A program made the position numbers and the translations under genes. Shown here one piece after another: positions 9,533 through 12,718 of a stretch of DNA of 64,000 nucleotides. Within the stretch, counting starts at the first letter, position 1. Every line of letters starts with the position of its first letter. The notes under the pieces were generated by a model. That model saw only the letters and a program-made list of their open reading frames with translations, did not search any database and was not told the DNA's origin. This DNA is from Rhodospirillaceae bacterium (GTDB lineage Bacteria; Pseudomonadota; Alphaproteobacteria; GCA-2721365): contig PBKC01000059.1 of the NCBI GenBank assembly GCA_002721365.1, positions 12,091 to 76,090 on the forward strand, given 5' to 3'.

Positions 9533-9761
9533 TTAGACAGAGGAACTGCCCTCATATGGCAATCCGTCATCTTCCAGCTGGGCTTGGAGCAGGCCGGCCA
9601 AATATTCTTCCATCTCGCTGAAATCGAGATGGCCATCGTCCCAAGCCCGATCCGCTGCTGCTAACGCAGCCTCATATCCTTCGCGGTCATCCCTGATTCG
9701 CTCTGGAAGAATCTTTCTTCCCGGCAAAAGCACTTCAGACCGAACGCACAGTAGAAAATAA
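9533..9761 (-). pseudogene. Fic-domain gene, 3' fragment (split by IS)
   Basis: Reads YF-LLCVRSEVLLPGRKILPERIRDDREGYEAALAAAD...; joins in frame with the 12301-12718 fragment when the IS and one TSD are removed. Confidence 0.9.
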
Positions 9762-9801
9762 GGCAATTATATACTTTACTTAGCGAATCAGGTTCACCAC
9801 A

Positions 9802-10023
9802 GTGTGCGACGACAGGCCGGCGCTTAATTCAGACGAGATCGAGGTGACCCCCGGGATGATCGAGGCGGGGGTGGCGGAGCTTCGCCAATTCGTTCGCGGC
9901 GAGGATTCTATTCCGGCTTATGCGGAGTGGATTTATCGGGCAATGGAAGCTCGACGCCGTAATCCATCAGGGCGTGGGCGAGCGCTTGCCGTTCGTCAGT
10001 CGCGGCCTCCAGGAATTTGTTGA
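9802..10023 (+). CDS. IS passenger: small hypothetical protein
   Basis: DEIEVTPGMIEAGVAEL...WIYRAM is protein-like and lies just inside the TIR. It overlaps the 3' end of the convergent HEPN gene; start uncertain. Confidence 0.5.
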   Translation: MCDDRPALNSDEIEVTPGMIEAGVAELRQFVRGEDSIPAYAEWIYRAMEARRRNPSGRGRALAVRQSRPPGIC

Positions 10024-10516
10024 TCAGGATGATCGCGGTTGCTGTGTACAGGTGGTGAGCCAAGCCATCCGGGAATCCAACACGCTTTGCGTCGCTTGAG
10101 CCTTCTTTCGGTTCAAGGAAGCTGCACAGTCGCTCGACCTCGACGGTCTTAAAGGTGATTGGGCGCATCGTGTGGGCGAAGGCGTTTCTCACTTCGCGTA
10201 TGGTGTGGAGATTCCGCTTTTCGCGTTTGTCGCAGAGTCTCAATGCGTAGGCGAGATTAATCCTGGCGGAGAATGTGCCGAGCGGCCTGTCGGGATCGAA
10301 CAAATCCCCATAGTCATCGGAGTTTAGAGGCCGAAATTTGGCTGCCAGCGCCATGCGAATGGTGTCGTCGAGCATGGAGGCGATGACCAAAGCCGCGCCT
10401 CTGTCGCTTTGGTTGACGACGGCGTTGAAAACTGTGTCCATGTCGCCTGATCCAGGCGGCTGCCTGGAAAGGGACTTCAGAGCTTTGCGAGCCTTCTCCA
10501 ATGCCGAAGCAGACAT
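9908..10516 (-). CDS. IS passenger: MtlR/MltR-like (HEPN-fold) protein
   Basis: SDRGAALVIASMLD, LF..DRPLGTFSARINLAYAL and IREVRNAFAH (RxxxxH). SD-like GAGGGG precedes ATG 10516; alternative start 10441. Confidence 0.8.
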   Translation of the reverse strand: MSASALEKARKALKSLSRQPPGSGDMDTVFNAVVNQSDRGAALVIASMLDDTIRMALAAKFRPLNSDDYGDLFDPDRPLGTFSARINLAYALRLCDKREKRNLHTIREVRNAFAHTMRPITFKTVEVERLCSFLEPKEGSSDAKRVGFPDGLAHHLYTATAIILINKFLEAATDERQALAHALMDYGVELPLPDKSTPHKPE

Positions 10517-10695
10517 CTAAGCCCCCTCTCTCTGATGCCGACGACCAGCTATCCCCCGAAGAGACGGTAGCGCGTCGCGAGACCATCCTAAAGCGGTTGC
10601 TGAATACGCCGCCGAAGCCGCTGAAGCCGAAGAAGGAGCCGACCGCTGGCGAGAAGCCGAAGCGGGGGCGGCCGAAGAAGGGCAATGGCGGCTAG
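10501..10695 (+). CDS. IS passenger: small basic protein (64 aa)
   Basis: SPEETVARRETILKRLLNTPPKP, then a K/R/P-rich tail with KRGRPKK (AT-hook-like). No clear SD. Confidence 0.55.
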   Translation: MPKQTSKPPLSDADDQLSPEETVARRETILKRLLNTPPKPLKPKKEPTAGEKPKRGRPKKGNGG

Positions 10696-10699
10696 AGCG

Positions 10700-11083
10700 T
10701 CAGCGCCGCCCTTTTCTGGCGTCGGCCCAGCTGTTTCCGGCAGCGCGTTCGTTATGTGCATCGACCGAGTCGTACATTTCGAAATGCTGTTCGGAAGGAA
10801 TCTGCTTGCCGCAGCTCGGACACTTGAAGACCTCATCGCCATATCTCGGGTGGTAGCCGTGGCTGAGCATCGGGTTCGGCGGGAACGTGCATTGGCATAG
10901 CTTGTAGCCGAGCGATTGTGCGAGCTGCGCCTCGCTGGCGCGCAGGGCCTTCTCCGCTTGCTCCAAGCGTTGTTGAGCGGCGTCAGCGTCAGGTCCCTTC
11001 GGGAGAAGTGCGCTCAGTGACCTGAGAATATCTAAAACGTCCTTAGATGCCCGGATGTATTCGGAGATTTGGCTCATATCCAT
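10700..11083 (-). CDS. IS passenger: Zn-ribbon-containing hypothetical protein (~127 aa)
   Basis: AAGGAG SD before ATG 11083; helical N-terminus, then GYKLCQCTFPP...FKCPSCG (CxC...CxxC). Confidence 0.75.
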   Translation of the reverse strand: MDMSQISEYIRASKDVLDILRSLSALLPKGPDADAAQQRLEQAEKALRASEAQLAQSLGYKLCQCTFPPNPMLSHGYHPRYGDEVFKCPSCGKQIPSEQHFEMYDSVDAHNERAAGNSWADARKGRR

Positions 11084-11311
11084 GGTTGGAACGACTCCTT
11101 CGGCTCGGGCATCATCGCCAGAAACGGCTGCGGCTTTCGCGGAAACGCTTATAAAGGCGCGGGCGGCACACGCAGGTGACATTGTGCCGCTATTTGCCGC
11201 CTTTGTGGGACTCGTTTTTCAGCGAGATGAGGCAGTCGGTGCGGACTGCCTCACGGCCCTGGATCGTTGGCTTTGCGACGACGCCACCGCCGGAAGTGCT
11301 TCGCCTTCTGC

Positions 11312-12241
11312 CTAGGCGTCTGCGGCTTGACGAGGTTGCCTATAGGTCAACCGCTTGCCTTCGATGCCTTTGAGGGCCTTGGCGGCGCGTTCGGCATCCT
11401 CGACGCCGAGGGCGGACCGCTCGTTGTGGCGGAAGTCGAACTCGCACAGATACCGCTTCAAATGAGCTTCCGAGACGTGGTGATAGGTCCCGTAAATCCC
11501 GCGCTTCAGGGTCGAGAAATAGCTTTCGACGGTGTTGGTGTGCCAGAAGCCGCCACGGACATATTCGTCGATGCTGTGGTTCACATGGCCGTGGCCGGCG
11601 AATTCCTTGCCGACCGCCGTGTAGGTCGGTGCCTCATCGGTCATCAGGTAGCTCTTGCGGCTGGCCTGGGTGACGAGGGTTTCGCGGACGTTCTTCGCGG
11701 TGACGTTGGCGACGTGCGTTGACCGGACGCGGCCGTCGCGCTCGACGAGGGACATGACGGCCTCTTTCTTCGGCGGCTTCTTGAAGGCGCGGTTCTTCGC
11801 CTTGCCGCCGATGTAGGTTTCATCGGCCTCGACGACCTTGTTCTCGCCACCGAGCGGCGTATCGCTGTTGTCGCGCATCGCCTCGCGGATGCGGTGGGCC
11901 AGGAACCACGCCGTCTTGTAGGTGACGCCGAGCATGCGGTGGAGCTGGTGGGCGGACATGCCCTTCTTGCTCGACGCCATCAAATGCATCGCCAGAAGCC
12001 ACTTGTTCAACGGAATGTGGCTCCGCTCCATCACGGTGCCGGTGCGGACGGTGAACTTGCCCCGGCAATCGTTGCACAGGAACATGCCGGCCTGGGTCTT
12101 CCCGCCCATGCGGCGGATATTGCCGGAACCGCAGTGAGGGCAGGTGACGCCATCGGGCCAGCGGGACGCCTCGATATGGGCGCGGGCGGCTTCGGCGTTC
12201 TGAAAGATCGGGTCGAAAAGGTTGGTGGTCGTCATGGTCAT
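11312..12241 (-). CDS. IS1595-family transposase (Zn ribbon + ISXO2-like DDE)
   Basis: CPHCG...CNDC, VEADETYIGG, LMTDE, VNHS..EYVRG..HTNTVESYF, HLKRYLCEFDFRHN. Confidence 0.96.
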   Translation of the reverse strand: MTMTTTNLFDPIFQNAEAARAHIEASRWPDGVTCPHCGSGNIRRMGGKTQAGMFLCNDCRGKFTVRTGTVMERSHIPLNKWLLAMHLMASSKKGMSAHQLHRMLGVTYKTAWFLAHRIREAMRDNSDTPLGGENKVVEADETYIGGKAKNRAFKKPPKKEAVMSLVERDGRVRSTHVANVTAKNVRETLVTQASRKSYLMTDEAPTYTAVGKEFAGHGHVNHSIDEYVRGGFWHTNTVESYFSTLKRGIYGTYHHVSEAHLKRYLCEFDFRHNERSALGVEDAERAAKALKGIEGKRLTYRQPRQAADA

Positions 12242-12300
12242 GCTCCTGTCTTGATAGGAACATGATATCTCTAGGCTGCTAAGTCAAGTATATAATCGCC

Positions 12301-12718
12301 GAAAATAACATGTCGCGCGCGCAGTTCTTCCATTACCTTCTATAAAAGGGTGAATCCAGTTCAGACGCCAAAGCCCGTAGGCTGCGAGCTCTGTCGGAGT
12401 CCAAATATACCAATTTTCCTGGACCGTCGAAATAAACCGATCCATCCACTCATCAACCTCATTAAAGTGAGGCGGTTTATGGTCTCCAACATAGATTGGC
12501 TCTCTGCGAAAGCGCCCTCCAAACTGGGATATATTAGAAACTGCCACATGATTGAGAGCCCACAGAAGGTATTTATCAAAAGATACCGGCCCCTTCTTTA
12601 AGCCAATTTCTATGCAGTTTGTCATCAAGTCATACTGACGGTTCAGGTTTTGCTCCTGAATCCTATCGAATAACTCCTGGTCTTCTTGTTCCAGAACAAA
12701 TATTGCAAGAAAGATGCT
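12301..12718 (-). pseudogene. Fic-domain gene, 5' fragment containing the catalytic motif
   Basis: HPFIEGNGRTAR matches canonical HxFx(D/E)GNGRxxR. Truncated by the IS directly after the motif; visibly AT-rich. The frame is open back to the TGA at 12719-12721, with no ATG/GTG/TTG before 12628. Confidence 0.9.

Follow-up and report, generated by a model that had tools for sequence, protein, structure and literature searches.

A complete IS1595-family insertion sequence in a Rhodospirillaceae bacterium carries a conserved accessory gene set that includes a predicted HEPN-type protein

INTRODUCTION

The ISNwi1 group of ISfinder, as we take it to be defined, consists of insertion sequences (ISs) that carry passenger genes, have ends of the form GGnnATTAT, generate an 8-bp target duplication, and span approximately 1.75 to 4.75 kb. 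Here, we describe an IS1595-family element that fits this presumed definition and that lies in a 64,000-nt stretch of the genome of a Rhodospirillaceae bacterium (contig PBKC01000059.1); the whole stretch is referred to as the window, and coordinates count from its first letter. Like the members of the group as we understand it, the element has a transposase that combines a zinc ribbon with a DDE_Tnp_IS1595 domain, GGnnATTAT ends, an 8-bp duplication, and passengers that lie downstream of the transposase and inside the ends; what sets it apart is a transposase that is at most 72% identical to that of any relative found. Transporter ISs whose passengers are unrelated have been described in the IS1595 family (Siguier et al. 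2009, as cited in PMC8496243). In the element described here, three of the four passenger open reading frames (ORFs), designated A, H, and B, recur in many related elements in a fixed order and orientation.

The closest described counterparts of the product of gene H are HEPN proteins. HepS, encoded by the prophage Gifsy-1, is a single 212-aa HEPN anticodon nuclease that acts by abortive infection (PMC13043305), and RAZR (PD-T7-4) is an RNase that combines a zinc finger with a DUF4145 domain (PMC13017515). Both DUF4145 and MtlR are grouped within the HEPN superfamily, in which an Rx4-6H motif with a polar residue after the arginine marks active RNases; many MtlR regulators have lost this catalytic motif (PMC3710099). 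H resembles HepS and RAZR in being a stand-alone, mobile-element-borne, predicted HEPN-type protein of approximately 200 aa with the Rx4-6H site that HepS and RAZR need for function, and it matches the DUF4145 domain found in RAZR. Unlike these two proteins, H is accompanied by two small partner genes; moreover, the zinc finger is fused in RAZR, whereas the zinc-ribbon protein of the window element is encoded by a separate neighboring gene. The solved proteins closest to H by profile are the mannitol-operon repressors MtlR/YggD (PDB 6kcr and 3brj), which belong to the same DUF4145-like HEPN group (PMC3710099). MtlR occurs in gammaproteobacterial mannitol operons and has often lost the motif, whereas H lies on an alphaproteobacterial IS and keeps RNxxxH.

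Toxin-antitoxin pairs of Tn3-family transposons (bioRxiv 10.1101/848275; PMC7157771) offer a parallel in that a conflict-type module is positionally fixed in a transposon lineage. The element described here differs from them in its transposase family, its much smaller size (2 to 2.5 kb), the absence of a recognizable type II operon, and its unannotated gene families. We found no text linking IS1595 to HEPN in the searchable literature, nor was the recurrent A/H/B set found in that literature, which did not include the work of Siguier et al. (2009). The IS itself is ordinary, well formed, and of a catalogued kind; its interest lies in the conserved module, which is undescribed as far as could be searched and for which we infer an RNase-type function from sequence.

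RESULTS

A complete element with four passenger ORFs

Direct reading of the sequence placed the IS1595-family element at positions 9762 to 12300 (2,539 bp) and indicated that it is complete. The element and its target-site duplications have the following features.

9754 to 9761, no strand: left target-site duplication, GAAAATAA, identical to 12301 to 12308 (read directly)
9762 to 9784, + strand: left inverted repeat (IRL), GGCAATTATATACTTTACTTAGC, the end distal to the transposase; paired by the repeat finder with 12278 to 12300
9802 to 10023, + strand: gene B, 73 aa, GTG start, motifs IEVTPGMIEAG and WIYRAME; reads inward from the IRL
9908 to 10516, - strand: gene H, 202 aa, predicted MtlR/DUF4145-like HEPN-type protein (Pfam and profile), motif R110-N-A-F-A-H115
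10501 to 10695, + strand: gene A, 64-aa basic microprotein, motif ETVARRETILKRLLNTPPKPLK, AT-hook-like tail KRGRPKK; divergent from H
10700 to 11083, - strand: variable passenger, 127 aa, N-terminal helical part and C-terminal CxC...CxxC zinc ribbon (gene callers)
11312 to 12241, - strand: IS1595-family DDE transposase with N-terminal zinc ribbon; 309-aa ORF, likely start M3 at 12235 (307 aa)
12278 to 12300, - strand: right inverted repeat (IRR), reverse complement GGCGATTATATACTTGACTTAGC (repeat finder); 59 to 65 bp upstream of the transposase start
12301 to 12308, no strand: right target-site duplication, GAAAATAA (read directly)

The inverted ends comprise 23 nt each, are complementary at 21 of 23 positions (91%), and lie 2,493 nt apart. 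They match the form GGnnATTAT (GGCAATTAT and GGCGATTAT) that we take to define the ISNwi1 subgroup. The 8-bp duplication GAAAATAA is exact on both sides. An initial annotation of the window, made from the letters alone, had reported a complete element with 23-bp terminal inverted repeats (21 of 23 identical) and an exact 8-bp duplication, and direct reading together with the repeat finder verified every one of these structural claims. Its estimate of four passenger ORFs and about 60% of nontransposase sequence also held (four ORFs; approximately 64% of the length). The label ISNwi-type IS1595 transporter stood as regards the family and the passengers, on the basis of the Pfam and NCBIfam matches given below, the ends, and the duplication; the fit to ISNwi1 holds under our presumed definition. 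The G+C content was 60% for the IS, 50 to 55% for the surrounding islet, and 65% for the window. A search of Rfam gave no match, and a promoter scan gave a single match, at chance level.

The transposase matched Pfam DDE_Tnp_IS1595 (PF12762; E value, 4.4e-33), Pfam Zn_ribbon_IS1595 (PF12760; 2.9e-10), and the NCBIfam IS1595 transposase model NF033547 (8.8e-58; 195.7 bits, with a cutoff of 75 bits). Its start at 12235, the second ATG, is preceded at 7 nt by AGGAG and was also the one chosen by the gene callers (307 aa). In an alignment with 80 homologs, the window transposase retained every position conserved at ≥97%, among them D140, D202, N236, E239, K246, and R247, which we assign by analogy to the catalytic site; the zinc-ribbon cysteines C34, C37, C56, and C59 were likewise kept. 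Because all clade-invariant residues are retained, the DDE residues are not degenerate, and the transposase, which the initial annotation had called uninterrupted, is encoded by an intact ORF. With one genome per GTDB species searched, the nearest transposase was 72% identical, and the nearest on plasmids was 59% identical. In RefSeq, the transposases of relatives are labeled simply as IS1595 family transposase. Relative to everything searched, the usual identity rule would probably class the element as a new IS, as had been surmised.

A conserved accessory set in related elements

Relatives were collected by scanning one genome per GTDB species with a back-translated pattern, which detected at least 525 stretches that encode relatives. 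The best 80 of these were all from Alphaproteobacteria, with transposases 57 to 72% identical to that of the window, and a script found GGnnATTAT ends with an exact 8-bp duplication for 27 of the 80 (2.0 to 4.2 kb). The ends common to the relatives read GGnnATTAT(A/G/C).... Across 28 complete elements, the duplications averaged 36% G+C, compared with 61% for their loci, and G/C was favored just outside the AT-rich octamer (24 of 28 at position -1; 21 of 28 at position +8). A GG-N8-CC or palindromic target was considered and discarded, as neither was present in the 28 elements, which had the AT-rich octamer with a flanking G/C preference instead. Judged by these features, the relatives constitute a large and coherent IS1595 lineage that carries cargo, and the window element is typical of it.

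To describe the cargo, we used a set of 81 related alphaproteobacterial loci, in which all stop-to-stop frames from 5 kb upstream to 5 kb downstream of the transposase were searched. Clustering of the cargo ORFs of complete elements revealed that the 64-aa A and the 73-aa B of the window are homologous to ORFs in many elements, usually with an RNxxxH protein (H) between them, and profiles were built from the resulting families.

Gene A: basic microprotein of approximately 45 to 65 aa; 55 of the 81 loci; strand opposite the transposase; family hidden Markov model (HMM)
Gene H: RNxxxH protein of approximately 170 to 220 aa; 47 of the 81 loci, or 48 with a second subtype; same strand as the transposase
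Gene B: protein of approximately 60 to 70 aa at the distal end; 35 of the 81 loci; strand opposite the transposase; family HMM

The order in the 81 loci was fixed: the transposase, a gap of 12 to 2,100 bp, A (-), H (+), B (-), and the distal end, with strands given relative to the transposase and all three genes downstream of it. A single exception to this placement was detected, i.e., one A/H/B match in the 5-kb upstream flanks of the 81 loci. B co-occurred with H in 33 of 35 loci (Fisher's exact test, P = 1e-8). A was independent of H (P = 1) and was retained where the slot held other proteins, such as DUF3800 or a 284-aa family. Minimal elements consisted of the transposase, A, H, and B alone (e.g., locus L128). 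Other occupants of the cargo region in relatives included a GIY-YIG nuclease, an N6-methylase/Eco57I-type enzyme, Bro-N, and DUF3800.

The divergent and convergent geometry of the three genes was the same in relatives as in the window. The 3' end of B overlaps that of the convergent H by 30 to 116 bp in most elements and by 116 bp in the window. The starts of A and H overlap head to head by 16 bp in the window, given that the true start of H is M1, which is supported by an alignment with P0002 that begins at residue 1 and by GAGGGGG located 5 nt upstream. Since A, H, and B keep their order and orientation across loci, the mixed orientation of the cargo is itself a conserved feature. The description of the cargo in the initial annotation as being in mixed orientations therefore needs refinement: the three genes, which it had listed as passengers, are a lineage-conserved set rather than a collection picked up along the way. 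We conclude from the loci compared that three of the four passenger ORFs are the standard accessory set of this IS lineage and that only the 127-aa ORF is variable cargo.

The A family comprises 1,819 members, none with a Pfam domain, and the B family comprises 543, all annotated as hypothetical and none with a Pfam domain; NCBIfam gave no match for A, B, or H. Both small genes behave as coding sequences because divergence is highest at third codon positions (0.46/0.44/0.62 for the three positions of A; 0.54/0.53/0.68 for those of B) and because A is also called as a gene by the gene callers. In 150 other class-level genomes, A was detected at 10 places, 7 of which were within 1.5 kb of a clade transposase; two of the others were on draft contigs without a clade transposase, and one was a decayed copy. 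The variable passenger has a Shine-Dalgarno-like AAGGAG before the ATG at 11083, and the longest ORF extends to 11182 (160 aa). It gave a weak zinc-ribbon match as its only Pfam hit, and its sole homolog among the 81 loci was in L043, in the same slot.

Gene H and the RNxxxH proteins of relatives

The H protein of the window matched Pfam DUF4145 (5.1e-5; 23.7 bits, with a curated cutoff of 23.1). Its 15 to 16 closest homologs, several of which were already annotated as MtlR (PF05068), share SDRGA...DRPLGTFSARI...IRNAFAH, and the R, N, and H of the motif are invariant among them. A profile of these homologs matched the solved MtlR structures 6kcr (7.9e-10) and 3brj (2.5e-7) and, weakly, the defense nuclease HepS (9oij; 0.0096). 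On the strength of these profile matches, window H is assigned to the HEPN superfamily (MtlR/DUF4145 type), and its predicted RNxxxH site is intact. L057, L107, and L128 also have an MtlR-type H in the same slot, and another adjoins the element of L040.

The H protein of most relatives is from a different family, with no detectable homology to window H beyond the motif. In this majority family, R and H are invariant and N is nearly so (RNxxxH). No Pfam match was obtained for 28 of 29 members, and no PDB sequence match was found; in a wider set, 2 of 150 members weakly matched HEPN_Cthe2314. The structural model had one good match in a viral library, the unnamed 159-aa protein A0A4Y5TZQ9. The family includes 26,187 representatives of 50%-identity clusters (E ≤ 1e-3), without annotation, and Pfam has no model for it.

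The interrupted Fic gene

The element lies in a Fic gene, of which two parts flank it.

9533 to 9761, - strand: 3' part of the split Fic gene; rejoins the 5' part in frame once 9762 to 12308 is removed
12284 to 12718, - strand: 5' part of the split Fic gene (Pfam Fic), motif HPFIEGNGRTAR; the frame now enters the IRR and then stops

The 5' part matched Pfam PF02661 (5.2e-15), and its translation contains the motif HPFx[D/E]GNGR as HPFIEGNGRTAR. In silico deletion of 9762 to 12308 (i.e., the IS and one copy of the duplication) resulted in one open Fic frame of at least 212 codons. Because the deletion rejoins both parts in frame, the event was a simple insertion just past the Fic catalytic motif. 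The locus has the order trpF-Fic-trpB, and the immediate effect of the insertion is the inactivation of a Fic-type toxin gene inside an islet that splits the trp operon. The restored Fic frame, together with the occurrence of the same ends and of exact 8-bp duplications in 27 relatives, indicates that the element is not a chance arrangement of repeats and ORFs.

Copy number and distribution

A whole-genome search of the 4.0-Mb draft (86% complete) detected one copy of the element. Elsewhere in the same genome (G000), outside the window, there are two distant IS1595-family transposase genes (31 to 33% identity) and one short fragment, at the following places.

C85:3338-4147
C4:7648-8436
C59:90255-90380

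Four independent sources of marine metagenome assemblies yielded an identical H protein, each with the same trpF-Fic::IS-trpB arrangement and 99.97 to 100% identity over the IS and its flanks. An exact scan of a metagenome collection for the empty junction returned 0 hits; the positive control (an IS end) also returned 0, and the scan is hence uninformative. The initial annotation had described the insertion as recent and probably still mobile. That description was not upheld, given a single copy at the same site in every metagenome record found; the intactness of the element permits activity and goes no further.

Several relatives were located in viral or plasmid sequences. The element at L128:3928-6087 (IMGVR_UViG_3300045838_000006) is a complete minimal relative of 2,160 bp inside a 60-kb viral contig; its 24-bp ends are perfect, its duplication reads ACGGCAGA, and it encodes B, an MtlR-type H, A, and the transposase. 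As it sits in a viral contig, these elements evidently land in phage or prophage DNA. B, an H of the majority type, and A are also present in a phage-like contig that encodes Mom and a small terminase (L099:3960-4890; JGI 3300060916; L100 to L106 are near-identical). There, an apparently miscalled 72-aa gene lies antisense to A, a degenerate inverted-repeat-like sequence precedes B, and no transposase is present; this type of transposase-less B-H-A stretch was found in 12 contigs from several samples. The idea that H and B form an independent phage module was considered and withdrawn, as L099 also encodes A and has the degenerate repeat-like sequence before B. The stretch is best read as a transposase-less remnant of the IS. 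In another phage-like contig (L108:4001-4303, and likewise L109), a 100-aa B-like protein was found alone, with no H, A, or transposase detected; the contigs encode an N6_N4 methylase, DnaA_C, a large terminase, and an SU10 portal protein. A search of deposited phage genomes found nothing.

Two plasmid relatives, L125 (Methylobacterium oryzae pMOC1) and L126 (Roseomonas marmotae p1318-1), have IS1595 transposases of 49% identity, downstream of which lie genes for a hypothetical protein of approximately 270 to 290 aa, a PIN/VapC toxin, and an ORF of approximately 60 aa. PIN/VapC is another RNase-toxin cargo at the same position.

Two loci contain adjoining elements. At G097:C85:86449-89682, two clade elements stand head to head, with divergent transposases 128 bp apart and an A gene of its own on the outer side of each. 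At L040:4363-4981, an inverted B and an MtlR-type H lie directly upstream of the L040 transposase, an arrangement suggestive of a second element whose distal part borders on the first.

DISCUSSION

The interpretation that we consider the most probable is that the window contains a complete IS1595-family transporter IS with A as part of its backbone, H and B as a cassette, and a variable passenger, in which H is a putative RNase conflict module. Under this interpretation, the transposase would bind the 23-bp ends and move the whole 2.5-kb unit. H would be a metal-independent RNase, held inactive or otherwise regulated by B through protein contact or through the antisense overlap at the 3' ends. 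By analogy with HepS and RAZR, it may act as a conflict module (abortive-infection-type defense or addiction) that pays for the persistence of the element. A would be a small nucleic-acid-binding factor that serves the element itself, in the control of transposition or of cargo expression, rather than H. A conflict-module role is consistent with the other occupants of the cargo region (GIY-YIG, N6-methylase/Eco57I-type, Bro-N, and DUF3800), with the presence of PIN/VapC at the same position in the plasmid sister clade, and with the retention of the B-H-A remnant in a phage-like contig.

Several observations weigh against this interpretation. The AlphaFold2 (AF2) model of window H, all-helical with a small sheet, was weak (predicted local distance difference test [pLDDT], 68; predicted template modeling score [pTM], 0.55), and Foldseek found no PDB match at E < 1; the AF2 model of the majority H, with a pLDDT of 84, likewise had no PDB fold match. 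We accordingly dropped a claim to a HEPN fold for H from the models. Between window H and the majority H, hmmsearch gave 2.4 bits and hhalign a probability of 1 to 2%; the notion that all slot proteins belong to one family was also abandoned, since both programs, run without shared rows, aligned the motif only. The HEPN slot therefore stands for the window type and is suggested for the majority type, which is related to it by motif and position; a single HEPN slot across the lineage is to be read in the same way. A search of PADLOC-DB 2.0 gave no match for A, H, B, the 127-aa ORF, or 10 proteins from the slot in relatives. H faces away from A and toward B, with overlaps of 16 and 116 bp, a layout that differs from that of classical type II toxin-antitoxin operons, in which toxin and antitoxin are codirectional. 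The solved proteins most closely related to H (MtlR) are regulators, not toxins. With respect to activity, the element is single copy and was observed at one site only, neither an empty site nor a second insertion site was present among the metagenome records found, and activity is permitted by the intactness of the element.

Alternative explanations of the accessory genes differ in how well they accommodate the comparative data. If the four ORFs were arbitrary hitchhikers, captured once and unrelated to the lineage of the element, the element would resemble the IS1595-family transporter ISs with unrelated passengers that are known to exist, and the 127-aa ORF, with one homolog only (in L043), does behave in this way. 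However, A, H, and B return in the same order and orientation across most of the 81 loci, at a transposase identity to the window of only 57 to 72%, and we regard this explanation as highly improbable. An alternative that deserves more weight, and that we nevertheless consider unlikely, is that the accessory genes serve transposition: H would be a nontoxic MtlR-like regulator of RNA or protein with no role in defense or addiction, and the small proteins A and B would regulate the transposase level or the choice of targets. The mannitol-operon repressors among the relatives of H speak for this possibility, as does the coupling of A, with its AT-hook-like tail, to the transposase lineage and not to H, in an element whose ends and targets are AT-rich. 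The geometry also fits, because A and B are on one strand and a read-through transcript from the IRL would be antisense to both H and the transposase. This alternative is less compatible with the conservation of the motif, in which R, N, and H are invariant in the window subfamily and R and H in the majority family, whereas many MtlR regulators have lost it. The exchange of the slot gene for DUF3800, the 284-aa family, or PIN would also be unexpected for a core transposition factor, and the B-H-A remnant has been kept without a transposase in a phage-like contig (12 contigs).

The present state of the window copy is a separate matter. It may be an immobile, fixed relic that is inherited vertically in a marine population and no longer transposes despite its intact look. 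We hold this to be a serious possibility, short of an even chance. Its single occurrence in the 4.0-Mb draft, the same site at 99.97 to 100% identity in records of four independent sources, the lack of a second site among the metagenome records found, and the mismatches at 2 of the 23 positions of the ends are all in keeping with it. On the other hand, no ORF is disrupted, neither end is damaged, the duplication is exact, the draft is 86% complete and repeated copies can collapse in such a draft, and the scans for empty or other sites were uninformative, as the positive control also returned 0.

Extending the favored interpretation (a backbone gene A and an H-B cassette with a putative RNase) from the window to the clade, we consider it possible, though less likely than not, that these elements are miniature multigene transposons. 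The transposase and A would form the backbone, and a swappable slot would usually hold an RNxxxH effector of RNase type (H) with a convergent B, with H drawn from at least two sequence-unrelated families. At 2.0 to 2.5 kb, such elements might be the smallest autonomous vehicles for abortive infection or addiction, and A might be a new transposon-coupled microprotein.

Genes that would be taken for passengers belong largely to the regular inventory of an alphaproteobacterial IS lineage that is very widespread, and they include two unannotated small-protein families (1,819 and 543 members) and a very large unannotated RNxxxH family. The elements reach phage genomes, as exemplified by the complete copy in a viral contig and by the retention of a remnant that lacks the transposase in a phage-like contig. 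Microprotein A would be a tractable new accessory factor for DDE transposition. If the cassette is a defense or addiction module, elements of 2 kb would be a cheap and frequent route by which such modules spread.

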